Positions 553-20,089 of a stretch of DNA of 64,000 nt are shown one piece after another. The notes beneath the pieces were generated by a model. The model had not been told where the DNA came from, did not search any database, and saw only the letters and a program-made list of their open reading frames with translations. Both the position numbers and the translations under genes were made by a program. How positions within the stretch are numbered: the first letter of the stretch is position 1; every line of letters begins with the position of its first letter. Origin of the DNA: an uncultured Thermoleophilia bacterium (GTDB taxonomy: Bacteria > Actinomycetota > Thermoleophilia > UBA2241); assembly GCA_963715985.1 (NCBI GenBank), contig CAVQSP010000013.1:480001-544000 (forward strand), in the 5' to 3' direction.

Positions 553-1344
553 ATGGACCCAGAAGGCTCCGACAGACCGGCCGACCGGCGGATGGGCGTG
601 CAGGTGATCGCCCGCGCCGCCGAGATCTGCCGCGAGCTGGCGACATCGACCGACGGCCTCACCACGGCCGAGCTGGTAGAGCGCGTCGGCCTGTCCCGGC
701 CGACCGTGTACCGCATCGTCCGCGCCCTGATGGACGAGGACTTCGTCCGCCAGGTCGCGCCGGGCCGATACGCGGTGGGGCCGGCCTTCCTGGTGATCGG
801 CGGCTCGACCTACGGAGGGCTGCGGCACGACATGCGGCCGTTCATGAAGGAGCTCTCCGGCGAGCTCGGCGAGACCATCGATCTCGCCGTCCTCGACAAC
901 GGCGAAGCCCTCTTCGTCGACCAGTTCGTCGCGCTGCGAGGGCTCCGCGTGGTGGCGCACATGGGCGCGCGCTTGCCGCTGCACTGTACGGCGAGCGGCA
1001 AGGCGCTGCTGGCGGCGCTACCGCCCGACGAGGCCGAACGCGAAGTGCCGGACACTCCGCAGGCGTACACCCCGAACACCGTCACCGACAGGGCCGCCCT
1101 GCTCCAGGAGCTGGAGGAGGTGCGGCGGACGGGCATCGCGTACGACCACGAGGAGTACGTGATGGGGGTCTGCGCCGTGGCAACGCCCGTGTTCGACGCC
1201 GTCGGTGCCATCGGCGCCCTCACCGTCGAAGTGCCCGCCGTCCGTTTTCACGGTCGCGAGAAGCCGATCGCCGTCGCGGTGCTGCGATGTCGCGACCTCG
1301 CCCACCGCGCCCTGCTCGGAACGGAGCCGGCTCACCAGCGCTAG
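553..1344 (+). CDS. IclR-family transcriptional regulator (copy 1)
   Basis: GVQVIARA...GLSRPTVYRIV helix-turn-helix; GARLPLHCTASGKALLA effector-domain motif; start could be 535 or 541. Confidence 0.93.
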   Translation: MDPEGSDRPADRRMGVQVIARAAEICRELATSTDGLTTAELVERVGLSRPTVYRIVRALMDEDFVRQVAPGRYAVGPAFLVIGGSTYGGLRHDMRPFMKELSGELGETIDLAVLDNGEALFVDQFVALRGLRVVAHMGARLPLHCTASGKALLAALPPDEAEREVPDTPQAYTPNTVTDRAALLQELEEVRRTGIAYDHEEYVMGVCAVATPVFDAVGAIGALTVEVPAVRFHGREKPIAVAVLRCRDLAHRALLGTEPAHQR

Positions 1345-1425: not shown

Positions 1426-1491
1426 TTGACGCTCGCCCCATCTGCACCTACTATGCGGTCATATTGTGAGCTATGTGTCCGCATTGTGAGC
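1426..1491 (+). promoter_or_regulatory. Sigma70 promoter followed by a tandem candidate IclR operator pair
   Basis: TTGACG(1426)-17 nt-TACTAT(1449); GGTCATATTGTGAGC at 1457-1471 and GTCCGCATTGTGAGC at 1477-1491. Confidence 0.7.
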
Positions 1492-1507: not shown

Positions 1508-2881
1508 ATGGCTTCGGACTACGACATGGGCAAGTCCCGTCTTGTCACGCGACGCGACTTCCTCAAGACGGGCGCGCTGGCGGGCGCAGCCCTGGGAGTG
1601 GGCGGCGCCCTCACGGGTTCGCTGGCCGCCTGTGGCACCACGAGCTCCGGCGGCAGCAGCGGCGACAGCAGCTCCGGCGCCGAAGGCCGCGAGATCAAGA
1701 TCGGCTTCGTCACGCCGCTCACCGGACCGCTGGCCTCGTTCGGTATCCCCGACGCCTGGTGCGTCAAGCAGTGGGAGGCGTCGGTCGCCGACGGTCTCAA
1801 GTGCGGCGACGGCCAGGTCCACCCGATCAAGTTCCTCGTCAGGGACACGCAGTCCGACACCAACCGCGCCGCTACCGTGACCGGTGACCTCATCACCAAC
1901 GACGGCTGCGACATCATCATGGCGGCCTCCACGGCCGACACGGTGCCGCCCGTCGCCGACACGTGCGAAGCCATGGCCGAGCCGTGTGTCACCAACGACT
2001 GCCCGTGGCAGGCGTACTTCTTCGGCCGCGGCGGCGACCCCGCCAAGGGGTTCGAGTGGACCTACCATTCGTGGTGGGGTCTCGAGGGCATCACCGCCAC
2101 GTTCGTCTCCATGTGGGACGCGCTCACGACCAACAAGAAGGTCGCCGAGATGTGGCCCAACGACGGTGACGGCCTCGCCTGGGCCGACCCTGAGAAGGGC
2201 CAGCCGCCGGTCCTCAAGGCAGGCGGCTACACCATCATCGACGGCGGTCGCTACCAGGACCTCACCGACGACTACACGCCGCAGATCGCCAAGTTCAAGG
2301 CGGCCGGCGCCGATATCCTGAGCGGCGTCATGCTGCCCCCCGACTTCACCAACTTCTGGAAGCAGTCGCTGCAGCAGGGCTTCAACCCGATGATCGCCAC
2401 CGTGGGCAAGGCGCTCCTCTTCCCGCAGTCCCTCGAGGCGCTTGGCGACGTCGGCTACAACCTCTCCAGCGAGTGCTGGTGGTCGCCCAACCACCCGTTC
2501 ACGTCCTCCCTCACCGGGCAGACGTGCAAGGAGATCGCGGACCAGTACGAGACCGACAACAGCGCGCAGTGGACGCAGCCGATCCTCCACTACGCGATCT
2601 TCGAAGTCGTCGCCGACGCCCTCAAGCGGGCGACGAACGTGGACGACAAAGCCAACGTCCGCGATGCCATCGCCGCCACCGACATGCAGACCATCGGCGG
2701 CCGCATCACGTGGAGCAGCGACGACAAGAAGCTCAACCCGGTGCCCAACGTCTGCACCACGCCCATCACGGGCGGCCAGTGGGTCAAGGGTGACAAGTAC
2801 CCGTACAACCTGGTCGTGGTCGACAACTCGCAGGCCCCCGAAGTCCCGACCCAGGCCGAGTTGCAGCCACTCCAGTACTGA
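1508..2881 (+). CDS. ABC transporter substrate-binding protein, LivJ/K-like, Tat-exported lipoprotein (copy 1)
   Basis: TRRDFLK twin-arginine motif, LAAC lipobox, IKIGFVTPLTGPLASFG, DTQSD motif. Confidence 0.92.
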   Translation: MASDYDMGKSRLVTRRDFLKTGALAGAALGVGGALTGSLAACGTTSSGGSSGDSSSGAEGREIKIGFVTPLTGPLASFGIPDAWCVKQWEASVADGLKCGDGQVHPIKFLVRDTQSDTNRAATVTGDLITNDGCDIIMAASTADTVPPVADTCEAMAEPCVTNDCPWQAYFFGRGGDPAKGFEWTYHSWWGLEGITATFVSMWDALTTNKKVAEMWPNDGDGLAWADPEKGQPPVLKAGGYTIIDGGRYQDLTDDYTPQIAKFKAAGADILSGVMLPPDFTNFWKQSLQQGFNPMIATVGKALLFPQSLEALGDVGYNLSSECWWSPNHPFTSSLTGQTCKEIADQYETDNSAQWTQPILHYAIFEVVADALKRATNVDDKANVRDAIAATDMQTIGGRITWSSDDKKLNPVPNVCTTPITGGQWVKGDKYPYNLVVVDNSQAPEVPTQAELQPLQY

Positions 2882-3126: not shown

Positions 3127-3190
3127 TTGACCGCAACGCCTCAGTCCGCTAGAGTTCCAATAAACGGAATGAACGTTCCATAAGATGGAA
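3127..3190 (+). promoter_or_regulatory. Sigma70 promoter followed by a tandem candidate IclR operator pair
   Basis: TTGACC(3127)-17 nt-TAGAGT(3150); TTCCAATAAACGGAA at 3155-3169 and palindromic TTCCATAAGATGGAA at 3176-3190. Confidence 0.72.
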
Positions 3191-3238
3191 CGAAAGGACA
3201 GGACAGGCGCGGGCTTCCACGCGACCTGGAGGGCTCCC

Positions 3239-6200
3239 ATGACGGTATCGGGACGACAGCGCGCGGCGCGCGCGGTGCAACAGGCGAAGGGGACGCTGGC
3301 GGAGACGCAGTTCGCCGCGGTCCTGGCGGCGCTGCCGGTGCTCCTCAGGACCACGGCCCACCGGCACCCGGCCTTTGCCGCGCGGCTGCGCGAGCGCGAC
3401 CTCGTGGCCCAGATCGTCCTCGCCGGTACGAGCCGCGGCCGGGCCTACGCGTTCCGCGACGGTGCGGTGCACTCCCGCGCCGGCCTGCACCCCAAACCGG
3501 ACATCACCATGACCTTCGACTCGGCCGAGCTGGCCGTGCGCCTGCTCAAGCCCTCCCGCGATTACCTGGAGTTCATCGATGCCCTCAAGAACTTCCAGAT
3601 GAGGGTGGAGGGGCCGGACGAGCTCGCCGTGTGGTTCTCGGAGACGCTGCAGATGATGCTCACGGCCGGGCTGGAGTTCGGTACCGATGTGGGCGGCGGG
3701 GTGCGCCGCTACACGAGCAACACCAACGGCGGCCCGGTGTACGTGTTCGTCAGGGACGGGCGCATCCTCCGCATCACCCCGATCGAGTTCGGCGAGGACG
3801 ACGCCGCGCCCTGGACCATCGAAGCGAGGGGCCGCAGCTTCACGCCTCCCCGCAAGACGACGGTGAGCTCGCACACCCTCGCCTGGAAGTCGCTGATCTA
3901 CTCGCCGGACAGGCTGCTGTACCCGATGAAGCGTGTGGACTTCGACCCCGCCGGCGAGCGCAACCCGCAGAACCGCGGCACCTCAGGGTACGAGCGCATC
4001 TCGTGGGACGAGGCGCTGGACCTGGTGGCGTCCGAGATCAAGCGTGTCAAGCGCGAGCACGGCCCCGGGGCGATCATGAACGGCAGCGGCTCGCACCACA
4101 CGTGGGGCGTGCTGGGCTACTGGCTGAGCGCCCGCATCCGCTTCTTCAACACCATCGGCTGGACGCCGGTGATGCACAACCCGGACAGCTGGGAGGGGTG
4201 GTACTGGGGCGCGTCGCACCACTGGGGCCAGACGGCGCGTAACGGGGGCGGCGAGACGTACGGCACGGTGGAGGACTGCCTCAAGCACTGCGAGATGGTG
4301 GTGTTCTGGTCCTCCGACCCGGAGGCCACGAGCGGTGTGTACGGCGCTCACGACGGCACGATCCGGCGCCAGTGGCTCAAGGACCTCGGCATCCCCTTCG
4401 TGCACATCGACCCGTACTTCAATCACACCGCCTCCTTCATGGGCGGCAAGTGGCTGGCCCCGCGGCCCGGCACCGACAGCGCCATGGTCCTGGCCATCGC
4501 GCACGTGTGGATGACGGAGGGCCTCTACGACCGCGAGTACGTGGCGGAGCGCACGGTGGGCTTCGAGAAGTGGCGGGCCTACGTGCTCGGCGACGAGGAC
4601 GGCGTGCCCAGGACGCCGGACTGGCAGGAGGTCGAGACCGGGGTGCCCGCGCGCGACGTACGTGCGCTCGCGCGCGCGTGGGGGTCGAGAAAGACGTACC
4701 TTGCCGCCGGCGGCCTCATCGGCTTTGGCGGCGCCTGCCGCACGGCCACCGGCACCGACTGGGCGCGCGGCGTTGTGTGCCTGATGGCCATGCAGGGCCT
4801 CGGCAAGCCGGGCGTCAACATGGGTTGTCTGCAGCAGGGCACGCCGCTGGACACGCACTTCTTCTTCCCCGGCTACGCGGAGGGCGGCTACTCCGGCGAC
4901 CTGACCGGGACTGCGCTCAGCATCAACATGTACCAGCGCATGCCGCAGCTCGCCACGGTGAACACCGTGTCGCAGGTGGTGCCGCGCCTCAAGATCCCCG
5001 AGGCCATCATGGACGGGCACTGCGAGGCCTACCCGACCGACCCCAAGTCGATCGAGGGCCAGTTCATGCGCTACGAGTACCCCGCCCCCGGCCACAGCGA
5101 GGTGAAGCTGTACTACAAGTACGGCGGCTCCCACCTGGGGACGATGACCGACACCAACCGCTTCGCGCGCATGTACCGCTCGGACAAGCTCGAGTGCGTG
5201 GTCAACCAGGGGATCTGGATGGAGGGCGAGACCAGGTTCGCCGACATCATCCTGCCGGCCTGCACCAACTTCGAGCGCTGGGACATCAGCGAGTTCGCCA
5301 ACTGCGGGGGCTACATCCAGCACGCGTTCACGCAGTGCAACCACCGCGTCGCCGTGATGCAGCACAAGTGCATCGAGCCGCTGGGCGAGTCGCGCTCGGA
5401 CCACCAGATCTTCCTCGACATCGCCACGCGGCTCGGCCTGGGCACGATGTACTCGGAGGGCGTCACCGAGCTCGACTGGTGCAAGCGGCTGTTCGACGCC
5501 ACCGACCTGCCGCGGCGCATCTCGTGGAAGGACTTCCTCAAGAAGGGCTACTACGTGGTGCCGGCGCCGCCTGTGGAGCGGCGCGACCCTGTCTCGTACC
5601 GCTGGTTCGCCGAGGGCCGGGCCAAGGACACGCCCGAGCTCACGCCGCTGCCCGCCGACTACACCGAGGAGTTCGGCCACGGGCTGCAGACCCAGTCGGG
5701 CAAGCTCGAGTTCGAGGCCTCGAGCCTCAAGCGCTTCGCGCCCGACGACCCGGAGCGCGTCGCCGCTGATGCGGTACGTCCCCGCCTGGGAGGGCCCGCA
5801 CGCGGAGGAGCTGTACGGCCGGTACCCGCTGCAGCTCATCACACCGCACCCGCGGCACAGCTTCCACACCCAGAGCGACGGCAAACACGCCGCCGTGAAC
5901 GACGTGGCGGACCACCGCGTCCTGGTGGACGGCCGCTACTACTGGATCGTGCGCATGAACGCGCGTGACGCCGCCGCGCGCGGCCTCGAGCAGCACCAGC
6001 TCGTGAAGGTGTTCAACGACCGTGGCGCGGTGATCTGCGCGGTCCAGCTGACGGAACGCCTTCCGGCAGGTACAGTGCACTCATACGAGTCGTCCGCCGT
6101 CTACGAGCCCATCGGCGAGCCGGGCAGGTCTCCGGACCGCGGCGGGTGTATGAACCTGCTCACGCCGAGCCGCATGATGATCCGCAGGTCGCACGCGCTG

Positions 6201-6299
6201 GCGGCGAACTCCTGCCTCGTGCAGGTGGAGGCGTGGCGCGAGGACGACGTGGTCTGGCCGGCAGCGGGCGGGGGGTCGACGGATGGTGCGCAAGGCTGA
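3239..6299 (+). CDS. Mo-bisPGD oxidoreductase, pyrogallol transhydroxylase alpha (AthL)/resorcinol hydroxylase-like, with an N-terminal SCP2-like domain; one frameshift near 5760
   Basis: [50 protein letters not shown] (Ser Mo ligand), [22 protein letters not shown]. The C-terminal molybdopterin-dinucleotide domain ([17 protein letters not shown]...ANSCLVQVE) continues in ORF 5769..6299. Confidence 0.88.
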
Positions 6300-7062
6300 G
6301 GGGGATGACGGGCCGGACAAGGGCGCCATGCAGGTGATCACGCGGGCGGCCGCCGTGCTCGGCGCGCTCGCCGCGCCCGGCGGCGGCCGCAGCCTCGCGC
6401 AGCTCGCCCAGCAGACCGGCCTGCCCAAGACGACGGTGCACCGCATCTGCACGGCGCTCGAGAGTGTCGGGTACGTGCAGGTGGACCCGGCCAGCGGCCG
6501 CAGGGAGCTGGGCAGCGGCATCCTGCGTCTGGCGGTGATGAGCCGGCGCGATCTGCGCACCGCGCTGGAGCCGTATCTGGCGCGACTCTCCCGCGACCTC
6601 AACGAGACGGTCGACCTCGCGGTGCTCGACGGGGGCGCCGTGCTCTTCCTCGCACAGCACCCCGCACCGGAGCGCGAGCTCATGGCCATCGCCCGTGTGG
6701 GGGCGCACTTTCCCGCCGCCAGCATGGCGAGCGGCAAGGTACTCCTGGCGCGCCTGTCCGACGACGAGCTGCAGCGGCTGCTGCCGCCGCGTCTGGCGAG
6801 CACGCTGCAAGGGCGGCCCAAGACGCGCGAGGACCTGATCCGCGAGCTCGACGACGTGCGCGTCACGGGGCTGGGGTTCGAGCGCGAGGAGCTCCGCCAC
6901 GGCATCTGTGCCATCGCCGTGGCCGTCGCCGACGTGGACGGGCGCGCCGCCTCCATCGCGGTGCCCATGCCGACGGCCCGGTTCAACGCCGCCGAGCGCG
7001 AAGTGGCGGCGGCGCTGCTGCGGCTCAGGGACGAGGTCCAGGCCGAGCTGAGTGGCGGCTGA
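6283..7062 (+). CDS. IclR-family transcriptional regulator (copy 2)
   Basis: [10 protein letters not shown] helix-turn-helix; [10 protein letters not shown]; ASGKVLLA. Confidence 0.93.
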
Positions 7063-7118: not shown

Positions 7119-7882
7119 ATGGACGTGTTCGACATCCGCGGGAGCCGCGCAGTCGTGGTCGGGGCGGGCGGGCTCGGCGGCGCCATCGCGCGCGGACTGG
7201 CCGGTCACGGCGCCGACGTGGTGGTGGCCGATGTGGACGGGAGCCGTGCCGCGGCTCTCGCCGCCGAGCTGGCCGGCGAGGGCGTGACGGCGGCGGGTCG
7301 TGGCCGTGGATGTCACCGACGAGACGTCGGTGGCGGCGATGGCCGAGGCGGCCGTCGCCCGTCTCGGCGGCGTGGACGCGCTCGTCAACGCCGCCGGGGC
7401 CACGGTGCGCAAGCGCGCCGAGGACCTCGCCCCCGCGGAGTGGCGCCGCATCCTCGACGTCAATGCCACGGGCACCTTCCTGTGCTGCCAGGCCGTGGGC
7501 GCACACATGGCGCGCGCGGGCGGCGGGGCCATCGTCAACCTGTCGTCGGTGCGCGGCCGCTACGGGGCCGTCTTCGGCCAGGCCGAGTACTCCGCCAGCA
7601 AGGGCGCCGTGGACTCGCTCACGCGCTCCCTGGCCGCGCAGTGGGCCGAGCTCGGCATCCGCGTCAACGCGGTCGCGCCGACGTTCGTGGAGACCGACCT
7701 CACGCGGGCGGTGCTCGCCGACGAGGCGTTCGCGGCGGCACTGCGGGCCAGCATCCCCATGGGCAGGTGGGCGGACGCCGCCGACGTCGTCGGGCCCCGT
7801 ACTCTTCTTGCTGTCGCCGGCGGCAGGCTTCATGACCGGCCAGATCGTGTACGTGGACGGGGGCCTGACGGCCCGCGTCTGA
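7119..7882 (+). CDS. SDR oxidoreductase, probably NAD-preferring; two frameshifts (near 7296 and 7795)
   Basis: GAGGLGG, VVADVD (acidic residue after beta2), VNAAG, YSASK, and FMTGQIVYVDGG recovered across three frames. Confidence 0.88.
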
Positions 7883-7919
7883 GCCCGGGGAGGGTGCGGC
7901 GGCGACGTGCGTGCGATGC

Positions 7920-7982
7920 TTGACCTCCTTCGGGCCCTGCACTAGTGTTCGCATCATGGAATCGTAGTTCCGTATCGTGGGC
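7920..7982 (+). promoter_or_regulatory. Sigma70 promoter followed by a tandem candidate IclR operator pair
   Basis: TTGACC(7920)-17 nt-TAGTGT(7943); GTTCGCATCATGGAA at 7947-7961 and TTCCGTATCGTGGGC at 7968-7982. Confidence 0.7.
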
Positions 7983-8161
7983 ACCCCGCGAGCGGACGGC
8001 GGCCGAAGAGGGGCGGGCCGGCGGCAGCCTGGACGACCCCGGCGGGGCGCTCATCCGCTTCCCGGACGGTGTCGCGGCGCACCCGGCGCCGGCCCCGCAG
8101 TGGACACGCAGCAGACCGGCAGCTACCCGCAGCGCCGGCCACACGTGAGAGGAGAACTGAG

Positions 8162-8959
8162 ATGGCTGAGCGAGAGATCTGGAGCCTCGAGAGTATCCGC
8201 GGCCTGTTCGACCTGACCGGCAAGGTCGCCATCGTCACCGGCGGCTCGGGGGCCTACGGGCACGACGCCGCCAAGGGTCTGGCGGCGTTCGGCGCCGACG
8301 TCGTGCTCACCAGCCGCCGCCTCGAGAACCTGGAGGCTGCGGCGGCCGACATCCGTGAGACCGGTCGCACGGTCCTGCCCATCGCCTGCGACGTGCTCGA
8401 CCCCGAGGGCGTGGAGAACGTCGTCCAGAAGACCGTCGACGAGTTCGGCAAGGTCGACATCCTGGTAACGGCCTCCGGCCAGGCCAACCGCTTCGCCGCT
8501 CACGAGTTCCCCATCGACGAGTGGGAGAAGGTCATGGACTCCCTCGTCAAGGGCACGTACCTCATCTGCCAGGCGGCGGGCAAGCGCATGATCGCGCAGG
8601 GCGGCGGCAAGATCATCACCGTGGGCTCCGTGCGCGGCTTCCTCGGGCACCCGGGCGGCTACTCTGCCTACGGCACCGCCAAGGGCGCCGTCCACCTGCT
8701 CACCAAGCAGCTCGCCACCGAGTGGGCGCAGTACCACATCAACGTGAACAGCGTCGCGCCCTGCATCTTCTGGACCCCGCTCACGCAGCAGGTCATCGAG
8801 GACCCGGAGCTGAAGAAGATCTTCCTCTCGCGCATCCCGTGGGGCCGCGTCGCCGACCCGCAGGACTTCATCGGCGCCACCGTCTACCTGGCCGCGCCGG
8901 CGTCTGACTTCGTGACCGGCGCCATCCTGCCCGTCGACGGCGGCAGCACCGCCGGCTGA
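8162..8959 (+). CDS. SDR oxidoreductase, NADP-type; candidate phloroglucinol reductase
   Basis: TGGSGAYG, VLTSRR (basic residues indicate NADP), YGTAK; RBS gaggag. The phloroglucinol reductase role is inferred from the neighbouring cyclase, cupin and HAD genes. Confidence 0.85.
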   Translation: MAEREIWSLESIRGLFDLTGKVAIVTGGSGAYGHDAAKGLAAFGADVVLTSRRLENLEAAAADIRETGRTVLPIACDVLDPEGVENVVQKTVDEFGKVDILVTASGQANRFAAHEFPIDEWEKVMDSLVKGTYLICQAAGKRMIAQGGGKIITVGSVRGFLGHPGGYSAYGTAKGAVHLLTKQLATEWAQYHINVNSVAPCIFWTPLTQQVIEDPELKKIFLSRIPWGRVADPQDFIGATVYLAAPASDFVTGAILPVDGGSTAG

Positions 8960-8984
8960 GCCGGCGGCAGCGAGGAGGCTGACC

Positions 8985-9926
8985 ATGGCCAAGGAGCGCG
9001 TGGCCGTCATCGGCGCCGGCCTGATGGGCATCGGCATCGCCCAGGTCTTCGCCGTGGCGGGGCACGAGGTGACACTCCAGGACGCGTTCCCGGAGGCGCT
9101 GGAGCGCGTGCCCTCGGTGGTGCGCGCCAACCTCACGTTCCTGGCCGAGAAGGGCCTCGGCTCTCAGGATGACGTGGAGGGGGCCGTGGCCCGGGTGTCC
9201 ACTACACCCGAGCTGCGTGCCGCCGTGCAGGGGGCGGCATTCGTGGTCGAGTGCGTCTACGAGGATCTCGCGCTCAAGCAGGGCGTGTTCGAGCAGCTCG
9301 ACGACGCCTGCCCGCCCTCCACGATCCTGTGCACCAACACGTCGGTGATGAGCATCACCGAGATCGGCGCGCGCGCCGTGCGCAAGGAGCGCGTGGTGGG
9401 CACGCACTTCTGGAACCCGCCGTTCCTCATCCCGCTGGTGGAGGTGGTGCGCACGGCCGACGTCGCCGACGACGTCGTGCTGCGCACCATGGAGATGCTG
9501 CGCAGCGTGGGCAAGCGGCCCATCGACTGCAAGAAGGACGTGCCCGGCTTCGTGGCCAACCGTCTGCAGCACGCACTGTGGCGCGAGGCGATCTCCATCG
9601 TGGAGCACGGCATCGCCGACGCCGCCACGGTGGACGAGAGTATCCGCTACGGACCCGGGCTACGACTGCCGGTCCTCGCGCCCATGGAGAACGCGGACAT
9701 GGTGGGGCTGGACCTCACCCTCGCCATCCACGACTACATCCTGCCGCACCTGGAGGCGTCGGGAGAGCCGTCGCCGCTGCTGCGCGCCAAGGTGGCCGAC
9801 GGCGACCTCGGCTTCAAGAGCGGGCACGGCTTCCAGGACTGGACGCCGGAGCAGGCGGAGGAGTCCCGCCAGCGGCTGGTGAGCTACCTGGTGCACGTGC
9901 TCACCGACGACCAGAGAGGCCTGTAG
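8985..9926 (+). CDS. 3-hydroxyacyl-CoA dehydrogenase family protein; candidate 3-hydroxy-5-oxohexanoate dehydrogenase (triacetate-forming)
   Basis: VAVIGAGLMGIGIA, ECVYEDLALK, TNTS, GTHFWNPP, PGFVANRLQ. Confidence 0.88.
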   Translation: MAKERVAVIGAGLMGIGIAQVFAVAGHEVTLQDAFPEALERVPSVVRANLTFLAEKGLGSQDDVEGAVARVSTTPELRAAVQGAAFVVECVYEDLALKQGVFEQLDDACPPSTILCTNTSVMSITEIGARAVRKERVVGTHFWNPPFLIPLVEVVRTADVADDVVLRTMEMLRSVGKRPIDCKKDVPGFVANRLQHALWREAISIVEHGIADAATVDESIRYGPGLRLPVLAPMENADMVGLDLTLAIHDYILPHLEASGEPSPLLRAKVADGDLGFKSGHGFQDWTPEQAEESRQRLVSYLVHVLTDDQRGL

Positions 9927-9994
9927 CAGGCCGCAAACGGGCAGGATGCCGGGCCGGCCGCACGGTGCGTGCCGTCGCCGGGGAGGAGTGCGGA

Positions 9995-10777
9995 GTGACG
10001 GAACGGCGTGACGGCGTGCAGGTGCTGGAGCGTGCGGCGCAGATGCTCCGCGCGCTCTCGGCCGAGCCCGACGGTCTCACGTCCATCGAGCTCGCCGACC
10101 GCGTCGGGCTGCCGCGCTCCACCGCCTATCGCATCGTGGGCGCGCTCGCCAGCGAGGGCTTCGTACGGGTGTCGCCCGGCGGCAAACTCTCCATCGGCGC
10201 CGGGCTCATCGGTATCGCCACCGCCGGGCGGCGCGATCTGCGGCACGAGGCCTCGCCGTACCTGGAGCGCCTGTCGCACGAGCTGCACGAGACGGTCGAG
10301 CTCGTGGTCCTGGACGGTGGTGACGCCCTCTTCACCAACCAGTTCGTCTCGTCGCGGTCGCTGCGCGTGGTGGCCGAGGTCGGCGACCGCTTCCCCCTCT
10401 ACTGCACGGCGTGCGGCAAGGCGCTCCTCGCGGAGCTGCCGCACGCCGAGGCCGTGCGGCTCATCCCGCGCAAGCTCAAGGCGCACACGCCGCACACCAA
10501 CGTCGACCGCGAGGACCTGCTCAGGGAGCTGGACCTGGTGCGCTCCACCGGCGTCGCCTTCGACCGCCAGGAGCACACGGTCGGCGTCTCCGCCGTGGGC
10601 GCCGCCATCCGCGACGCGGCGGGCTCCGTGGCCGCGCTCACCGTGGTCATGCCGGCGGCCCGCCTCGAGGGCGACGAAGAGCGCATCGCGTCGGCGCTCC
10701 TGCGGGTCCGCGACGAGATCCAGACGGCGCTCAACGGCGAGGGCACGCCCTTCGCCGGCAACGGGCGCCCATCTTGA
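9995..10777 (+). CDS. IclR-family transcriptional regulator (copy 3)
   Basis: GVQVLERA...GLPRSTAYRIV; GDRFPLYCTACGKALLA; GTG start after ggagga. Confidence 0.93.
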   Translation: MTERRDGVQVLERAAQMLRALSAEPDGLTSIELADRVGLPRSTAYRIVGALASEGFVRVSPGGKLSIGAGLIGIATAGRRDLRHEASPYLERLSHELHETVELVVLDGGDALFTNQFVSSRSLRVVAEVGDRFPLYCTACGKALLAELPHAEAVRLIPRKLKAHTPHTNVDREDLLRELDLVRSTGVAFDRQEHTVGVSAVGAAIRDAAGSVAALTVVMPAARLEGDEERIASALLRVRDEIQTALNGEGTPFAGNGRPS

Positions 10778-10839
10778 CACCGGCTTTGCCGCGCGAGTAG
10801 CGTATCCACGATACGGCATCTCGTGTCCGAGATGCGGAC
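10774..10839 (+). promoter_or_regulatory. Sigma70 promoter followed by a tandem candidate IclR operator pair
   Basis: TTGACA(10774)-18 nt-TAGCGT(10798); ATCCACGATACGGCA at 10804-10818 and GTCCGAGATGCGGAC at 10825-10839. Confidence 0.7.
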
Positions 10840-10984
10840 AGGCCGAGCACCTGGTGCACGTTCCCGGGGACGAGCGGCAGGGCGTCTGAGCCGTCGTGCG
10901 ACTCGTCGTCGCCGACGGACAGCCCGGGCACACGAGTGCCCGTCTGTCGAGACAGCAACGAGACCGAGGAGAAGAGAGGCAACC

Positions 10985-11920
10985 ATGGGGAAGAAGGTAT
11001 TCGTCGACCTCAGCCATCCGTTCGGTGCGGACATGCCGCTGTGGCCCTATTTCACCAAGCCGGTGATCGACACGATGCACGGCCTGGCCAAGTCCGGCGT
11101 CCTGAGCCAGAAGGTCACCGTCGTGCAGCACTGCGGCACGCATGCAGATGCGCCGCGCCACGTCATGGAACGCGACTTCGCCGGCAACCGCGCGAGATAC
11201 AGTCACGAACTGCCTGTGGATGCGTACGTCGGCGATGCGGTCTGCCTGGACATCAAGGTCGAGGACTGGGGCCTGATCAAGGGCGAGCACCTCGACGACG
11301 CCTGCGAGCGCGCGAACATCAAGCCCGAGGAGCTCAAGGGCATGGTGATCTGCCTGCGGACCGGCATGCACCTCAAGTACGACGACAGCAAGGACTACTA
11401 CCACTACTCGTGCGGCACCGGCCTGGACGCGGGCAACTGGTTCCAGAAGTACATGCCGAAGTGCGTCGCCATGGACATGCAGGCGCTGGACCACCCTCTG
11501 CACACGGCCATGGGCAAGAACGGCCCCACCCAGATGAACCTGCCCGGTAACTCGGGCCGGCCGATCACCGAGGAGTACATCGAGAAGTTCGGTCTCGAGG
11601 CGTATGCCGAATTCGAGCGGGACGTGTACATCGAGGTGTTCGGCATGGACAAGTACATGGAGGCCTACGGGCAGCTGGAGCGTGCGAATCAGCCGGGGAC
11701 CTGGGAGCCCTGCCACAAGCTCATGATGGGCAACGGCATCGTCGGCGTCGAGAACCTCGGCGGAGACCTCGACAAGGTCGTGGGCAAGCGCTTCCGCTTC
11801 TTCGCGTTCCCCCTCCGCTGGTGGCTGGGCGACGGCTCGATGGTCCGCTGCGCTGCGGAGATCGACGAGGACGACATGAACGACGTCCCCGACCGGACCT
11901 ACAAGTACGGCGTCATCTGA
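10985..11920 (+). CDS. Cyclase-family (kynurenine formamidase-like) metal hydrolase; candidate dihydrophloroglucinol cyclohydrolase
   Basis: FVDLSHP, HCGTHADAP (HxGTHxDxP), H...GIVGVENL, GDGSMVR. Confidence 0.88.
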   Translation: MGKKVFVDLSHPFGADMPLWPYFTKPVIDTMHGLAKSGVLSQKVTVVQHCGTHADAPRHVMERDFAGNRARYSHELPVDAYVGDAVCLDIKVEDWGLIKGEHLDDACERANIKPEELKGMVICLRTGMHLKYDDSKDYYHYSCGTGLDAGNWFQKYMPKCVAMDMQALDHPLHTAMGKNGPTQMNLPGNSGRPITEEYIEKFGLEAYAEFERDVYIEVFGMDKYMEAYGQLERANQPGTWEPCHKLMMGNGIVGVENLGGDLDKVVGKRFRFFAFPLRWWLGDGSMVRCAAEIDEDDMNDVPDRTYKYGVI

Positions 11921-11936
11921 GAGAAGGAGAGGGACC

Positions 11937-12287
11937 GTGGAAGTCACGCGCTACGACGAGGCCCCGAGCTACGAGGCTCCCGGGCATTTCGGTGTCTACG
12001 GCCTGCGCCTGCAGGGCTTCGAGGTCAGCAAGACCCGCAGTTTCTGGATGAGCATCTCTCACTTCCTGCCCGGTGGTGGCTGCGAGTACGTCGCCACGCC
12101 GATCGAGAAGGTGTACTTCGTGCTCGAGGGTGAGGTCACCGTCAAGACCGAGGAGGGCGAGGTCATCCTCAAGAAGTATGACTCCGTCTACCTGGCGCCC
12201 GATGAGGCTCGCTCCATCCTGAACCGCACCAACTCGCCGGCGACGATGCTCGTCGCCATCCCGTATCCGGAGCCTCGCGAGTTCTGA
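11937..12287 (+). CDS. Cupin-domain protein; candidate triacetate acetoacetate-lyase
   Basis: Y.APGH, SHFLPGGG, EKVYFVLEGE, E.RSILN cupin barrel; strong RBS. Confidence 0.82.
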   Translation: MEVTRYDEAPSYEAPGHFGVYGLRLQGFEVSKTRSFWMSISHFLPGGGCEYVATPIEKVYFVLEGEVTVKTEEGEVILKKYDSVYLAPDEARSILNRTNSPATMLVAIPYPEPREF

Positions 12288-12465
12288 TGACGCGCGCCGG
12301 GACCCCAGTCCTGGTCGGCTTCATGGCCGCGCAGCCCCGTGGGGCGTGCGCAGGCCGCGGCGGACGCGGGCGGCGGCACCACAGGTGCCGCCGCCCGCGC
12401 TTCCGCGGCGCCGGTCTGTCTCCCGCGACCGGCTGATCCACCCATCGACCTCTGAGGAGGCCACA

Positions 12466-13296
12466 ATGCCCAACCCGATCATCACCGCGGCACTCACCGG
12501 CCCGGTCGCGACCAAGGCCGACAACCCGGGGATGCCGGGCAGCGTGGCCGAGATCGCCGCGTCCGCCAAGGCGTGCTACGACGCCGGCGCGGCCGTCATC
12601 CACATCCACCTGCGCGACGACGACGGCACCATGACCGCCGACCTCGACGTGGCCAAGCGCACCGTCGCGGCGGTGCGCGAGGTGTGCCCCGGCATCACCC
12701 AGCTGTCCACAGGCGGGCTGCAGTTCACCTACGAGCAGCGCATGGCTCTCGTCGAGGCCAAGCCGGCGATGGCCACGCTCAACCCGTGCACCATGACGTT
12801 CGGCGCGGCCGAGTTCAAGAACCCGCCCAAACAGATGATGGAGCTCGCCGCGCGCATGATCGAGCTCGGCGTCAAGCCCGAGGTCGAGATCTACGACACG
12901 GGGCATCTCGACATGATGCTCTACCTTGTGCACAAGGGACTGCTCGTCGAGCCGCTGCAGGTCTCCTTCGTCATGGGCGTCCGCGGCGGCATGCGCGGCG
13001 ATCCCCAGCTGCTCTCCTGGCTCGTCCGCGAGCTGCCTGCGGGCACAAGCTGGCAGGTGATCGCGGTCGCCAAAGCCAACCTGCCCATGACCACCATCGG
13101 TCTGGCCATGGGCGGCAACGCCCGCACGGGCATGGAGGACACCCTCACGCTGAGCAAGGACGTGCCGGCCGAGTCCAACCTGCAGCTCGTCGAGCGTCTG
13201 GTGGGCATCGCGCACTCGATGCAGCTGCGGCCGGCCACCGTGCCGGAGGTCGTGGAGCGCCTCAAGCTCCACCCCGACCTCGTGCACGGAGGCTGA
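12466..13296 (+). CDS. Beta-keto acid cleavage enzyme (BKACE / DUF849 / Kce family)
   Basis: IITAALTG, AGAAVIHIHLRD, QLSTGG, KPEVEIYD, GGNARTGMEDT. Confidence 0.93.
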   Translation: MPNPIITAALTGPVATKADNPGMPGSVAEIAASAKACYDAGAAVIHIHLRDDDGTMTADLDVAKRTVAAVREVCPGITQLSTGGLQFTYEQRMALVEAKPAMATLNPCTMTFGAAEFKNPPKQMMELAARMIELGVKPEVEIYDTGHLDMMLYLVHKGLLVEPLQVSFVMGVRGGMRGDPQLLSWLVRELPAGTSWQVIAVAKANLPMTTIGLAMGGNARTGMEDTLTLSKDVPAESNLQLVERLVGIAHSMQLRPATVPEVVERLKLHPDLVHGG

Positions 13297-13367: not shown

Positions 13368-13430
13368 TTGACACCGTACGGGGCGGCTATATGATGCCCG
13401 TATCGTGGGAGACCCGTCCGTATGGCGGAT
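13368..13430 (+). promoter_or_regulatory. Sigma70 promoter followed by a tandem candidate IclR operator pair
   Basis: TTGACA(13368)-16 nt-TATGAT(13390); GCCCGTATCGTGGGA at 13396-13410 and GTCCGTATGGCGGAT at 13416-13430. Confidence 0.7.
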
Positions 13431-13613
13431 GTGGCGAGGGCCCTCAGGCCCTCATGTGAAGAGGAACACAACGTCCGGTCGCGCTCGGCGGCGGACAGCG
13501 GCACAGAGTCGGGCGCAACAGGCGTCAAGACGGACCCAAGGGGGGGTCCACGCGCGTCTCAGGCTCGCAGCGCGGGCTGTACGACGTCGCGGGACCGCGA
13601 CAAGGAGGGCGGC

Positions 13614-15035
13614 ATGAGCTCTGACGAACGCACACCAAACCAGGTCGGCGCGGCCGACGAAGCCGGGTTCGGCCGCAAGGCCGTTACGCGGCGCGACTTC
13701 CTCAAGACCGCCGGTGTGGCCGGCGCGGCGCTGGGCATCGCCGGCGGCGCCGGCAGCGTGCTGGCCGCCTGCGGCACCACCTCCAGCGAGGGCAGCGGCG
13801 GCGGCAGCAGCAGCGGCGCCGAGGGCCGCACCATCAAGGTGGGCTTCGTCGCCCCCCTCACCGGCCAGCTGGCCGCGTTCGGCGAGACCGACCAGTGGCT
13901 CGTGGAGCAGTGGATGACCGCCGTCAAGGACGGCGTGCAGTGCGGCGACGGCCAGGTCCACCCGATCGAGATCATCATCAAGGACTCGCAGTCCGACTCG
14001 AACCGTGCGGCCACGGTGGCCGGCGACCTCGTCACCAACGACGGCGTCGACGTCATGATGGTCGCCTCCACCCCCGACACGGTGAACCCGGTCGCCGACC
14101 AGGCCGAGGCTCTGTCCGTGCCGTGCGTGTCCAACGACTGCCCGTGGCAGCCGTACTACTTCGGCCGCGGCGCCACGCCCGACAAGCCTTTCACGTGGAC
14201 CTACCACGCCTTCTGGGGTCTCGAGGACGTCACTGCCGTGTTCACCGGCATGTGGGACCAGCTGACGACGAACAAGAAGATCGGCGCGATGTGGCCGAAC
14301 GACGCCGACGGCCTCGGCTGGGCCGACCCCAAGACGGGCCAGCCGCCGATGCTCAAGGCGGCCGGCTACACGGTCGTGGACGGCGGCCGCTTCCAGGACG
14401 GCACCGAGGACTACACGCCGCAGATCAGCAAGTTCAAGGCGGCCGGTTGCGACATCCTCAGCGGCGTGTTCATCCCGCCGGACTTCGTCAACTTCTGGAA
14501 GCAGTCGTACCAGCAGGGCTTCCAGCCCGTGGCCGCCACGGTCGGCAAAGCGCTGCTCTTCCCGGCCGAGATGGAGGCCATCGGCGACATCGGCTACGGG
14601 CTCACCACCGAGTGCTGGTGGTCGCCGTGGCACCCGTTCAAGTCGTCGCTCACCGGCCAGACCTGCCAGGAGCTTTCCGACGCCTGGGTCTCGAGCACCG
14701 GCAAGGAATGGAACCAGACGTTGCTGCACTACGCCGTCTTCGAGGTCGTCGTCGACTCCCTCAAGCGCGCCACCAGCGTCGACGACAAGCAGGTCATCCT
14801 GGACGCCATCAAGGCCACCGACATGAACACGATCCAGGGTCACATCACCTGGTCGGCCGGCGCCCCGCTGAACCCTGTCCCCAACGTCTGCCGCACCGTG
14901 CTGGTGGGCGGCATGTGGACCAAGGGCACCGACTACCCGTTCGATCTGCTCCTCGTCGACACGGCTCACGCCGCGGCGGAGCCGTTCAACGTGACCATCC
15001 CCACCAACGGCAAGCTCGTTCCTATCAGCTACTGA
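13614..15035 (+). CDS. ABC transporter substrate-binding protein, Tat lipoprotein (copy 2, paralogue of 1508..2881)
   Basis: TRRDFLK, LAAC; blocks shared with copy 1 include CGDGQVHPI, NDCPWQ, ECWWSP and LNPVPNVC. Confidence 0.92.
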   Translation: MSSDERTPNQVGAADEAGFGRKAVTRRDFLKTAGVAGAALGIAGGAGSVLAACGTTSSEGSGGGSSSGAEGRTIKVGFVAPLTGQLAAFGETDQWLVEQWMTAVKDGVQCGDGQVHPIEIIIKDSQSDSNRAATVAGDLVTNDGVDVMMVASTPDTVNPVADQAEALSVPCVSNDCPWQPYYFGRGATPDKPFTWTYHAFWGLEDVTAVFTGMWDQLTTNKKIGAMWPNDADGLGWADPKTGQPPMLKAAGYTVVDGGRFQDGTEDYTPQISKFKAAGCDILSGVFIPPDFVNFWKQSYQQGFQPVAATVGKALLFPAEMEAIGDIGYGLTTECWWSPWHPFKSSLTGQTCQELSDAWVSSTGKEWNQTLLHYAVFEVVVDSLKRATSVDDKQVILDAIKATDMNTIQGHITWSAGAPLNPVPNVCRTVLVGGMWTKGTDYPFDLLLVDTAHAAAEPFNVTIPTNGKLVPISY

Positions 15036-15120
15036 GTCGTCCTGTCCCCGACCCCTGATGCCCGGCAAGTGCGGCCCGTGCACACGAGGAGGTAGAAGTG
15101 ATGCAGGGCGGTGAGACCCC

Positions 15121-16541: not shown

Positions 16542-16545
16542 GGTC

Positions 16546-18699: not shown

Positions 18700-19479
18700 G
18701 TGAGCGAGTCACAGGAAGAAGCGCAACAGACGCGCAACGGAGTGCAGGTACTGGGCCGGGCGGCCCTCATCCTGCGGCTGCTGGCCGCCGACTCCTCGGG
18801 CGGGCTCACGTTCAGCGAGCTCGTCACCAGGGCCGGCCTGCCGCGCACCACGGTGCACCGCATCCGCTACGCTCTCGAACACGAAGGCTTCGTCTGCACC
18901 GACGAGGTCACCGGCAGGCTGCGCCTGGGTCCCGGCCTGCTGCAGCTGGCCGTGGCCAGTCGCAGGGACCTGCCCAGTGTGGTGCGGCCGTACCTCGAGC
19001 GGCTCTCCACGGAGCTCAACGAGACGGTCGACCTTGCCGTGCTGGACGGCATGCACGTGCTCTTCATCGCCCAGACTCCGGCTCCGCAGCGCTCCCTCAT
19101 GGTCGTCTCGCGGGTCGGAGCGCGGTTCCCCGCCTTCTGCACCGCCAACGGCAAGGCCCTGCTCGCCAAGCTGCCTCCCGACGACCTCAAACAGCGCCTC
19201 CCGCGCCGCCTCGAGACGTCCTCGCTGCACCTGCCCGTCTCTCGCGAAGCGCTCCTGCGAGAGCTCGCCGAGATCCGCAAGACCGGCGTAGGCTACGACC
19301 GTGAAGAGCATCACGCCGGCATCTGCGGCATCGGCGTGGTGATCACCGACATCGACGGCAGCATGGCCTCGATCGCCGTCCCCATGCCGACCGCCAGGTT
19401 CTACGAGGACGCCGACATCGTCGCAAACGCGCTCTTGCGCGTGCGCGACGAGATCGAGGTGGCCCTGCAGAGTGCCTGA
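18700..19479 (+). CDS. IclR-family transcriptional regulator (copy 4)
   Basis: GVQVLGRA, GLPRTTVHRI, GARFPAFCTANGKALLA. Confidence 0.93.
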   Translation: MSESQEEAQQTRNGVQVLGRAALILRLLAADSSGGLTFSELVTRAGLPRTTVHRIRYALEHEGFVCTDEVTGRLRLGPGLLQLAVASRRDLPSVVRPYLERLSTELNETVDLAVLDGMHVLFIAQTPAPQRSLMVVSRVGARFPAFCTANGKALLAKLPPDDLKQRLPRRLETSSLHLPVSREALLRELAEIRKTGVGYDREEHHAGICGIGVVITDIDGSMASIAVPMPTARFYEDADIVANALLRVRDEIEVALQSA

Positions 19480-20089
19480 GCGGGCCGTTCCGACCGGGAG
19501 GTCAGCGACAGTGTCAGGGCACCTCGAAGGATGTTCGATCGTGGCCGTGGTGGGCAGCCCGCGGCCGCGCGGAAACACATCGCTGCTGGTCGACGCGGCG
19601 CTCGAGGAGCTGGAGGCGCGCGGCGCCGGCGTGCGCAAGCTCCTCCTCGCCGACTACGCCATCGCGCCCTGCCTCGGCCATGAGGGCTGCGCCGAGTTCA
19701 CGTCCTGTCCGCACGGCGACGACGCCGACGAGGTGCTCGATGCCGTGTATGCGGCGGACGGGCTGATCCTCGCCTCGCCCGTCTACTACGAGAACGTCAC
19801 CGCGCAGATGAAGGCGTTCATGGACCGCAACGTCTACCGCTACAACCGCGACGAGTGGCTGAGCGCTCGCGCCGTGGGCCTGCTCGCGGTGACCGGCGAG
19901 ACCGGGCTGGACGACGCCATCGCCGCCATGCGCCGCTACGTCGCGCTCTCCACCACGCGGGAGGTGCCGACGGTCAGTGCGGGCGTGATCGCGGACGGAC
20001 TGGGCGTGGTCGCCGGGCAGCCCGAGTCCCTTGCGGCGGCGCGCGAGCTGGGCGCCGGCGTGGCGGAGCTGCTCGCCGGCGCCACCTGA
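19472..20089 (+). CDS. Flavodoxin-fold NAD(P)H-dependent FMN reductase / iron-sulfur flavoprotein
   Basis: GSPRPRGNT, CLGHEGC...CPHGDD, ADGLILASPVY, MKAFMDR; start may be 19511. Confidence 0.85.
   Translation: MPERAVPTGRSATVSGHLEGCSIVAVVGSPRPRGNTSLLVDAALEELEARGAGVRKLLLADYAIAPCLGHEGCAEFTSCPHGDDADEVLDAVYAADGLILASPVYYENVTAQMKAFMDRNVYRYNRDEWLSARAVGLLAVTGETGLDDAIAAMRRYVALSTTREVPTVSAGVIADGLGVVAGQPESLAAARELGAGVAELLAGAT

Follow-up and report, generated by a model that had tools for sequence, protein, structure and literature searches.

Phloroglucinol is a hub for the oxygen-free mineralisation of flavonoids and tannins, and the question raised by the locus described here is whether a group of neighbouring genes in an uncultured Thermoleophilia bacterium serves to open its ring. 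The DNA analysed, called the window below, is a stretch of 64,000 nucleotides (GenBank assembly GCA_963715985.1, contig CAVQSP010000013.1, positions 480,001–544,000 of the forward strand), and the genes in question occupy positions 7119–13296, which an earlier note had read as a candidate complete anaerobic pathway converting pyrogallol or phloroglucinol to acetyl units. With a probability of about 0.8, positions 1 to approximately 20100 of the window represent a chromosomal catabolic island that would channel trihydroxybenzenes into the reductive, oxygen-independent phloroglucinol pathway as in Clostridium scatologenes. Judged by the kinship of its cyclase, by synteny and by the transhydroxylase genes at its edge, the island is very probably a phloroglucinol ring-cleavage cluster linked to pyrogallol–phloroglucinol transhydroxylase genes, and to this extent the interpretation of the earlier note is supported. 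Knowing the soil lineages in which the pathway occurs matters for the preservation of carbon in peat and wet soils (Zhou et al., 2023; PMC10470551).

Candidate ring-cleavage genes and their conservation

Four enzymes of the pathway have been characterised in C. scatologenes: phloroglucinol reductase (PGR), a short-chain dehydrogenase/reductase (SDR); dihydrophloroglucinol cyclohydrolase (DPGC), a Mn2+-dependent member of the cyclase family; a dehydrogenase of the 3-hydroxyacyl-CoA dehydrogenase (HAD) family, TfD; and a BKACE, the triacetate acetoacetate-lyase (TAL) (PMC10470551). The cupin had been taken for the triacetate lyase, which is incorrect, the characterised enzyme being the BKACE; the set to be looked for in the window is SDR, cyclase, HAD and BKACE, and all four are present. 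The G+C content of the window is about 70% throughout, and the true frames were chosen among the many open ones by third-codon-position G+C, which backs the frames of all five core genes. Pfam matches and translations confirmed the gene list given earlier (an NADP-type SDR, a 3HCDH-family dehydrogenase, a Cyclase-family protein, a Cupin_2 protein and a BKACE, all on the + strand), as follows.

8162..8959, + strand: SDR-B, candidate phloroglucinol reductase, NADP-type with T-S-R-R after strand beta-2 (Pfam, motif alignment, synteny)
8985..9926, + strand: HAD-family dehydrogenase, candidate (S)-3-hydroxy-5-oxohexanoate dehydrogenase, TfD (Pfam 3HCDH_N and 3HCDH, synteny)
10985..11920, + strand: predicted dihydrophloroglucinol cyclohydrolase, DPGC, of the cyclase family (Pfam Cyclase)
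11937..12287, + strand: small cupin, conserved cluster member (Pfam Cupin_2)
12466..13296, + strand: BKACE, candidate triacetate acetoacetate-lyase, TAL, of a Thermoleophilia-specific subtype (Pfam BKACE, subtype comparison, synteny)

The open reading frame (ORF) of the cyclase spans 10823–11920, with the real start most likely at ATG 10985, and that of the BKACE spans 12346–13296, with a likely start at 12466. All five genes are intact, and their products align end to end with relatives, over 262–266 of 265 residues for SDR-B, 294–310 of 313 for the HAD enzyme, 311 of 311 for the cyclase, 115–116 of 116 for the cupin and 273–275 of 276 for the BKACE.

The cyclase is the strongest of the pathway assignments, and by sequence comparison it is placed inside the cyclohydrolase family. 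The protein of 311 residues matches Pfam Cyclase (PF04199; E = 5.9e-28), and its metal site, H-x3-H-x-D-x3-H (H49, H53, D55 and H59), which aligns to the His/Asp motif of kynurenine formamidase, is invariant in 14 of 14 aligned sequences. Equally invariant in these 14 sequences, and present in the window protein, are Trp20 and Tyr22, the substrate-pocket changes of the C. scatologenes enzyme (CsDPGC) that replace Ile32 and Leu34 of isatin hydrolase (PMC10470551). The cyclase is 69–81% identical to homologues from Bacillota/Clostridia and other phyla, with 78% for Acidaminobacter hydrogenoformans, 76% for Fusibacter sp. 3D3, 73% for Tissierella pigra and 72% for Lacrimispora algidixylanolytica. 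The cyclases of these four isolates sit in UniRef50_E3PU66 together with the characterised CsDPGC A0A0E3JZE4 (Zhou et al., 2023, Supplementary data 3; PMC10470551), and it is through this co-membership, not through direct alignment, that the kinship of the window cyclase to CsDPGC was judged.

The cyclase gene is also a mosaic element with respect to its surroundings. It is 93–97% identical to the cyclase gene of four related loci (L001–L004), yet the molybdenum (Mo) enzyme gene of those loci, where present, is 57–58% identical; in the loci that are closest in the other genes (L029–L032, L036–L039 and L066; Mo enzyme 86–88%, cupin 86–95%, BKACE 84–95%), the cyclase is just 74–76% identical. 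In a quick version of the cyclase tree the two Thermoleophilia types fall into different well-supported clades, mixed with other phyla. These mosaic identities and split clades suggest that the cyclase gene was replaced in place by transfer.

Conservation of the neighbourhood was assessed in those 55 of the 79 related loci whose sequence extends 4 kb or more to either side of the cyclase. An SDR gene lies near the cyclase in 45 of them, a HAD gene in 43, a BKACE gene in 43 and a cupin gene in 42; SDR, HAD and BKACE are all present in 41 of the 55 loci and accompanied by the cupin in 38, while none of the three is found in nine. The five genes travel together in Bacillota, Thermodesulfobacteriota, Chloroflexota, Bacteroidota, Spirochaetota and Actinomycetota.

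Residues of the HAD enzyme and the BKACE fit the proposed chemistry. Aligned to the structure 4kue, the HAD enzyme keeps the catalytic Ser117, His138 and Asn188, and the CoA-contact residues Lys56 and Asn221 of the C. butyricum 3-hydroxybutyryl-CoA dehydrogenase (HBD) are replaced by Leu58 and Gly225, with a three-residue insertion in addition. Loss of these two CoA contacts is the signature that separates the C. scatologenes enzyme (CsTfD) from 3-hydroxybutyryl-CoA dehydrogenases (PMC10470551), and the best solved relative of the window protein, the FHMPC dehydrogenase 4om8, acts on a free acid. In two related loci an extra HAD-family gene, 49–50% identical to that of the window, lies between cupin and BKACE (L001, 11458–12351; L004, 11389–12285). 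The BKACE (Pfam E = 5.9e-87) resembles Kce in full-length alignment (200.6 bits) and in its TIM-barrel BKACE domain, but where Kce has Glu14 it has Val14. At this position the BKACEs of other clusters carry Trp (Bacillota, T-G-A-W), Met (some Actinomycetota) or Ile-His (proteobacterial type), the characterised CsTAL has Trp16 (PMC10470551), and the window together with 12 Thermoleophilia loci has T-G-P-V (T-G-P-I in one). The residue is non-acidic in every case, as would suit a substrate with a 5-oxo and not a 5-amino group.

The cupin, near the cyclase in most loci as counted above, finds its best NCBIfam match in the mycobacterial cupin model named 'beta-D-galactosidase' (113.8 bits against a cut-off of 175), a name made doubtful for the family by its constant place in phloroglucinol clusters of many phyla. 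Against solved structures it gives weak matches of the TM1459 type (E = 2e-7), which provide no functional lead. Its stretch P-G-G-G-C-E-Y has no His at what we take to be the metal-ligand positions of TM1459-type cupins. The paper on the mycobacterial cupin makes no mention of the neighbour genes of that cupin. In the available portions of Zhou et al. (2023; PMC10470551), the word 'cupin' is absent from the main text, and a Cupin_2 protein, CSCA_1081, appears in the proteomics table.

For the reductase step, proteins of the SDR-B type (52–63% identical) are the sole SDR match in seven loci (L006, L007, L009, L025, L044, L010 and L069). Since this type is the sole SDR in otherwise standard clusters of several phyla, it seems that SDRs of two or more subclades act as the reductase, as far as sequence relationships can tell. 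After strand beta-2, where the PGR motif is TR(S/N) (PMC10470551), the cluster-linked SDRs of other phyla have T-G/A-R-S/N/T/K. Upstream of SDR-B lies a second SDR gene, SDR-A, whose product is 41–47% identical to the SDR-B type; its orthologue is intact in L032 as a single ORF of 254 residues (L032, 6353–7117), and among the related loci such a second, paralogous SDR is confined to the Thermoleophilia version of the cluster. In three Actinomycetota loci (L066, L072 and L051), the cluster SDR (57–60% identical to SDR-B) has W-D-M/I-K-T-D and not T-x-R-x after strand beta-2, an NAD-type signature, so that in some lineages NADH may be the cofactor of the reductase step.

The host was placed from the same comparisons. 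The loci with the nearest cyclases (those at 93–97% identity) belong to five metagenome-assembled genomes (MAGs) named 'uncultured Thermoleophilia bacterium', several Thermoleophilia and Actinomycetota MAG loci (L029–L032, L036–L039 and L066) are syntenic with the window across the whole 20 kb, and among the 120 matches listed for GatB all three that carry an organism name are from Thermoleophilia (88, 86 and 79% identity). The earlier guess of a probably actinobacterial genome is thereby supported and sharpened to the class Thermoleophilia. The flanks of the island hold argS, gatCAB and RNase J, which places it on the chromosome and not on a plasmid.

Molybdenum enzymes, regulation and layout of the island

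Around the ring-cleavage genes, the island contains the following further genes.

1..96, + strand: final 31 codons and stop codon (3' end) of a BthL-like gene for the small Fe–S subunit of pyrogallol–phloroglucinol transhydroxylase (tblastn with the L030 protein)
541..1344, + strand: IclR-family regulator IclR0, start codon uncertain (Pfam HTH_IclR and IclR_C; third-position G+C signal from about 553)
1508..2881, + strand: solute-binding protein SBP1 (Peripla_BP_6) with a twin-arginine signal (Pfam)
3239..6299, + strand: AthL-like molybdopterin enzyme of 'type 2' with an N-terminal SCP2-fold domain (Pfam PF21423, PF00384 and PF01568)
6283..7062, + strand: IclR-family regulator IclR1 (Pfam)
7119..7882, + strand: second SDR, SDR-A, NAD-type with A-D-V-D after strand beta-2 (translations, DNA alignments to orthologues)
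9995..10777, + strand: IclR-family regulator IclR2 (translation, third-position G+C frame, orthologues in nine related loci)
13614..15035, + strand: solute-binding protein SBP2 (Peripla_BP_6) with a twin-arginine signal (Pfam)
15121–15846 and about 15843–16541, + strand: ATPases of an ABC transporter of the branched-chain-amino-acid-type family (Pfam ABC_tran; third-position G+C; synteny)
16546–17418 and about 17415–18548, + strand: permeases of the same transporter (Pfam BPD_transp_2; third-position G+C; synteny)
18700..19479, + strand: IclR-family regulator IclR3 (Pfam; syntenic in related loci)
19472..20089, + strand: NADPH-dependent FMN reductase, the syntenic end of the island (Pfam FMN_red)

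The FMN reductase gene also follows IclR3 in L030, L031, L032, L039, L065 and L066. Two entries differ from the earlier gene list: the ORF at 7119–7835 is not a gene as it stands but the first piece of SDR-A, and in the 1 kb between the HAD and cyclase genes IclR2 had been missed, the ORF listed there (10008–10889) being in the wrong frame.

The AthL-like Mo enzyme named in the earlier note is indeed present upstream, with matches to PF21423 and PF00384, but its gene is split between two frames near 5760. Compared through its intact orthologue in L032, it aligns to AthL (4v4c_A) with 1044 bits across residues 2–868, and the window protein keeps the SHH, DSW and FPGYA stretches, which reportedly hold His144, Asp174, the Mo ligand Ser175 and Tyr404 (Messerschmidt et al. 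in 2004). Two AthL-like kinds occur in related genomes. 'Type 1', of 888 residues, scores 1202 bits against AthL, and the next gene encodes a 273-residue Fe–S protein that matches BthL (4v4c_B) over its full length with 274 bits (the pair in L030); 'type 2', the kind found in the window, has about 1005–1025 residues and an N-terminal extension, and no beta gene comes after it. Beside the window Mo gene there is no beta-subunit gene, IclR1 following directly, and the only BthL-like sequence in the 64 kb is the gene end at 1–96 (58% by tblastn with the L030 BthL-like protein over residues 243–273), separated from the Mo gene by IclR0 and SBP1. Because of this gene end, and because the same BthL-like gene lies upstream of IclR0 in L039 and L066, a canonical AthL/BthL pair is almost certainly located just upstream of the window. 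In 16 of the 55 loci with full flanks, and in 19 of all 79, from several phyla, an AthL-like gene is found no more than 10 kb from the cyclase, which supports a functional link to pyrogallol.

The N-terminal extension of the type 2 enzyme (approximately residues 1–145) was modelled by AlphaFold as an SCP2-fold domain with a pLDDT of 92.6 when 49 diverse sequences were supplied (144 residues); a model from six close sequences, with a pLDDT of 51, was not used. Foldseek with the former gave 32 PDB matches at E <= 1e-3, led by UbiJ-SCP2 (E = 8e-6) and including sterol carrier proteins and SCP2-like C-terminal domains of alkylsulfatases. At E <= 1 Pfam matched nothing in this domain of the window protein or of the L032 pieces, and all 38 full-length homologues scanned were likewise without a match; weak Pfam SCP2 matches occurred in three of 51 scanned homologues, and ESM Atlas gave weak leads with a best score of 0.84. 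A search of 1.84 billion cluster representatives gave 338 relatives of the domain (50% identity clusters) at E <= 1e-3. Of the best 150 of these, 51 were scanned for domain content, and most that are long enough run on into an AthL-like first domain; 44 clusters at 90% identity carry the SCP2–AthL fusion, among them one from an alphaproteobacterial MAG. In two relatives (P0367 and P0384) the SCP2-like domain is fused instead to a 6-phosphogluconate-dehydrogenase-type NAD-binding domain (beta-hydroxyacid dehydrogenase family), and it therefore behaves as a mobile module. Among the papers available to the search, none joins 'SCP2' and 'transhydroxylase', and an SCP2-domain Mo enzyme without an adjacent beta subunit is, as far as we found, unreported.

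The SCP2 fold is typical of domains that hold hydrophobic ligands. It is conceivable, although we hold it to be rather doubtful, that the SCP2-fused, beta-less AthL paralogue represents an uncharacterised subfamily of phenol-transforming molybdoenzymes with an activity other than that of the canonical transhydroxylase, and that the island funnels several trihydroxybenzenes. One possible activity would be one of the sequential transhydroxylations from hydroxyhydroquinone to phloroglucinol, which are known from Pelobacter massiliensis and to which, to our knowledge, no genes have been assigned. Alternatively, the target of hydroxyl transfer or hydroxylation by the enzyme might be a hydrophobic polyphenol or quinol, with an alkyl, acyl or prenyl substituent, that is bound by the SCP2 domain.

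The promoters of the island are listed below.

1426..1491, + strand: SBP1 promoter-like TTGACG-17-TACTAT, followed by direct repeats CATATTGTGAGC at 1460 and CGCATTGTGAGC at 1480, 20 nt apart (promoter scan)
3127..3191, + strand: Mo promoter-like TTGACC-17-TAGAGT, followed by palindromes TTCC-N7-GGAA and GTTCCAT-AAG-ATGGAAC (promoter scan)
7920..7981, + strand: SDR-B promoter read by eye (TTGACC at 7920, TAGTGT at 7943), with CCGTATCGTGGG at 7970–7981 and a degenerate copy TCGCATCATGGA at 7950
10774..10816, + strand: cyclase promoter read by eye (TTGACA at 10774, TAGCGT at 10798), overlapping the palindrome CGTATC-CAC-GATACG, with the operator on the - strand at 10805–10816
13368..13431, + strand: transporter promoter-like TTGACA-16-TATGAT, with the operator at 13398–13409 and a degenerate second copy CCGTATGGCGGA near 13420 (promoter scan)

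The SDR-B and cyclase promoters fell below the consensus threshold of the promoter scan, hence their reading by eye. Exact copies of the operator CCGTATCGTGGG stand at 7970 (+) and 13398 (+), and a copy with one mismatch stands at 10805 (-); each lies at or 2–22 nt downstream of a -10 hexamer. These three matches compare with 0.31 expected and were reached in 0 of 100 shuffles; when two mismatches are allowed, no enrichment is seen (7 matches, with 7.85 expected). Since the pattern was taken from the window, its independent support lies in its conservation: it stands at orthologous positions in 13 related loci, upstream of the SDR-B orthologue in eight (exact or with one mismatch), of the cyclase gene in 11 and of the transporter binding-protein gene in 11, and the other 66 loci hold just two matches, both inside genes. 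In L031, L032 and L066 the orthologue of the SBP1 gene is preceded by the repeat pair of the SBP1 promoter, with unchanged spacing. For the 17-nt palindrome of the Mo promoter, relatives show no conserved counterpart when up to two mismatches are allowed. The claim that all promoters share one operator thus holds for those of SDR-B, the cyclase and the transporter but not for those of the Mo enzyme and SBP1, which carry other repeats.

As predicted from these sites, the regulon is one of three operons, comprising SDR-B and HAD (possibly with IclR2), cyclase with cupin and BKACE, and the transporter, and the shared operator is probably bound by one of the IclR-type repressors of the island. If the promoters are as read, long untranslated leaders of approximately 175–210 nt would result (7955–8161, 10810–10984 and 13402–13613), in which Rfam gave no RNA element; in relatives the distance from operator to gene in the cyclase operon varies from 57 to 198 nt.

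Elsewhere in the window, positions 41317–47322 hold in a row a formate–tetrahydrofolate ligase, an FTCD_C cyclodeaminase-like protein, FolD, a NuoE-like protein and a NuoF-like protein with an extra 4Fe–4S site, a C1-tetrahydrofolate module beside a soluble NADH-linked Fe–S flavoprotein pair that could bear on whether the organism lives anaerobically. The tRNA-Gly (CCC) gene at 27131–27206 is the sole RNA gene found in the window by Rfam. Three short coding-like segments in three frames (36371–37086 and 37128–38315, both on the - strand), with no Pfam match, adjoin an N6/N4 DNA methylase gene and may be a broken or unknown restriction-modification partner.

Objections and alternative explanations

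Several results weigh against the assignment of the island to phloroglucinol cleavage. [quoted passage not shown] That a structure of phloroglucinol reductase exists is stated in the available portions of PMC10470551, which give no PDB code. In the motif after strand beta-2, SDR-B keeps the Thr and Arg of TR(S/N) and differs at the third position. The BKACE has Val where CsTAL has Trp, is 34–40% identical to the Clostridia-type cluster BKACEs, and scores below the cut-offs of all four NCBIfam models (262.7 against 382, 208.5 against 350, 195.2 against 725 and 153.5 against 430), the last of these being NF053538 for 3,5-dioxohexanoate:acetyl-CoA transferase, on which proteobacterial-type cluster BKACEs reach 377–406 as partial sequences. 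Because both proteins lie outside the subclades of the characterised reductase and lyase, their proposed roles rest mainly on synteny. NCBIfam scans, made both with the genes in the window and with those of the A. hydrogenoformans cluster, found no model for the reductase, cyclohydrolase or dehydrogenase and cannot adjudicate. The island contains no CoA-transferase or thiolase for the products, and both 'complete' and 'anaerobic' in the earlier description were overstated. The clade placements on which that description had been made to depend came out divided, with the cyclase inside the cyclohydrolase family and SDR-B outside the Clostridium-type clade.

The genes upstream of the core also carry frame breaks, of one base near 5760 in the Mo gene (ORFs 3185–5968 and 5769–6299) and, in SDR-A, one near 7290 and another at position 7797, where a run of C has one C too many, which raises the question of whether the island is decaying, the breaks being real mutations and the pathway or its upstream part being disused in this strain. 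The clustering of three breaks within 2.1 kb, the single intact ORFs of both orthologues in L032, L039 and L066, and the occurrence of only one of the three breaks in an obvious homopolymer would fit such decay. However, genes elsewhere in the window are split as well, namely argS (22688–23440/23355–24425), a GT20 (OtsA-like) gene (32262–33428/33388–33744), larC (39513–40079/40471–41115) and two tandem paralogous genes for permease-like membrane proteins (47644–49266 and 50173–51652). Codon-position G+C stays gene-like across each break of the island, and the five core genes are intact and end to end with their relatives. Because the essential argS is among the split genes, and because related long-contig MAG loci have similar splits (L003, L030, L031, L057 and L065), assembly indels are, on this comparison, the likeliest cause of the breaks, and decay of the island is quite improbable.

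A closer rival accepts the pathway type and alters the substrate, which would be, for example, a phloroglucinol with a methyl, acyl or alkyl substituent, hydroxyhydroquinone, or resorcinol broken down through a cyclic 1,3-dione. Different chemistry would then be reflected in the divergence of SDR-B and BKACE and in the presence of SDR-A and of the SCP2-fused AthL paralogue. Besides the position of SDR-B and BKACE outside the characterised subclades, the restriction of the second SDR to the Thermoleophilia version of the cluster and the association of the SCP2 fold with hydrophobic ligands speak for this explanation. Against it, the pathway-defining cyclase is 72–78% identical to members of the UniRef50 cluster that holds CsDPGC and has the same pocket residues, the SDR-B type serves as sole SDR in the seven otherwise standard clusters named above, and canonical AthL/BthL genes flank the island, and we therefore regard a related substrate as unlikely. 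That the genes are chance neighbours, or serve an unrelated role such as lysine fermentation (a Kce-like BKACE), fatty-acid oxidation (HAD) or sugar-acid metabolism (SDR annotated as gluconate 5-dehydrogenase), is what automatic annotation would suggest, though with all NCBIfam scores below the cut-offs. No such annotation reaches a curated cut-off, the five genes co-travel across six phyla, three of their promoters share a conserved operator, the BKACE lacks the amino-binding Glu and the HAD enzyme lacks the CoA contacts, so this explanation is scarcely credible.

Proposed route and known systems

For the phloroglucinol pathway itself, we infer the enzyme activities in all of the proposed steps. 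The ABC transporter with its Tat-signal binding protein (13614–18548) would import the phenol, and the canonical AthL/BthL transhydroxylase, of which the last 31 codons lie at 1–96, would convert pyrogallol to phloroglucinol. SDR-B would reduce phloroglucinol with NADPH to dihydrophloroglucinol, the cyclase would open the ring hydrolytically to (S)-3-hydroxy-5-oxohexanoate, the HAD enzyme would oxidise this to 3,5-dioxohexanoate (triacetate), and the BKACE would convert triacetate and acetyl-CoA to acetoacetate and acetoacetyl-CoA. The cupin would be a conserved accessory with none of these steps assigned to it, and the SCP2-fused AthL paralogue (3239–6299), with its own regulator and binding protein, would form a separately controlled module, probably feeding in another phenol.

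If correct, this route adds the Thermoleophilia, abundant and largely uncultured soil Actinomycetota, to the carriers of the pathway, and uptake, transhydroxylation and ring cleavage come together in a well-organised regulon. All five core genes are misnamed by current annotation; the CAMPER annotation tool, according to the portions of its description available, covers the four enzymes. As several SDR and BKACE subclades seem to fill the reductase and lyase roles, surveys seeded with Clostridium enzymes may under-call the pathway. The conserved cupin and the SCP2–AthL fusion present, within a known pathway, well-defined questions that can be put to the test.

The extension is a modest one. 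The pathway, its enzymes and its wide distribution (12,225 co-located clusters) are in print (Zhou et al., 2023; PMC10470551), and the same source lists the cluster in Mycobacterium and, in supplementary entries with C. scatologenes-type cyclohydrolases, 'Actinobacteria bacterium RBG_16_64_13' and 'Actinomycetia bacterium' MAGs, some of the actinobacterial MAG entries being in the same UniRef50 cluster as CsDPGC. The statement that no such report existed for the lineage therefore fails at the level of the phylum. The names Thermoleophil*, Solirubrobacter and Conexibacter do not occur in the available files of Zhou et al. (2023; PMC10470551), and the literature search, judged by titles, found no paper on phloroglucinol in Thermoleophilia.

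Among actinobacterial systems, the mycobacterial cluster, as far as the available description goes, comprises the same five families, and the best NCBIfam match of the window cupin is the mycobacterial cupin model. Its cyclohydrolases belong to another cluster, UniRef50 A5U375, and have 250–290 residues against 311 in the window, and it includes a phloretin hydrolase (PMC10470551), of which none was seen in the island. The mycobacterial genes are presumably those numbered Rv1714–Rv1718. An aldolase-dependent phloroglucinol pathway, with reductase, cyclohydrolase and then aldolase, was reportedly described by Li and colleagues in 2024 for Collinsella sp. zg1085 (Coriobacteriia); this actinobacterial pathway is said to share the reductase and cyclohydrolase with the window and to have an aldolase where the window has a dehydrogenase and a BKACE.

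With respect to AthL/BthL of Pelobacter acidigallici (4v4c), the likeness of the window lies in the AthL-like alignment, the kept SHH, DSW and PGYA stretches and the BthL-like end at 1–96. The P. acidigallici AthL, however, is without the SCP2-fold domain of about 145 residues, and in the window no beta-subunit gene is beside the Mo gene, which is less AthL-like than the 'type 1' paralogue (1044 against 1202 bits), has its own IclR regulator, binding protein and operator, and is frame-broken in the assembly.

The closest comparison is with the C. scatologenes cluster, insofar as it is described in the available portions of its report. The same four enzyme families are present in both, the cyclohydrolases belong to the same tight family (length class, Trp20/Tyr22), TfD is likewise without the CoA contacts, the BKACE is likewise non-acidic at the position of Kce Glu14, and a small cupin (CSCA_1081), a regulator and a transporter lie alongside as in the window. 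The gene order is SDR–HAD–IclR–cyclase–cupin–BKACE in the window, whereas most Bacillota loci have cupin–SDR–HAD–cyclase–BKACE; the SDR is of another subclade, the BKACE has Val and not Trp, and the transporter is an ABC system where C. scatologenes has one of the major-facilitator type. Four IclR regulators, the NAD-type SDR and transhydroxylase genes in the same place are additional in the window. The island is, in sum, a further example of a pathway already described and widespread, and its local peculiarities are a distinct BKACE subtype, a reductase that is not of the Clostridium type, the additional NAD-type SDR, an IclR regulon and, accompanying the canonical AthL, a paralogue fused to an SCP2 domain.

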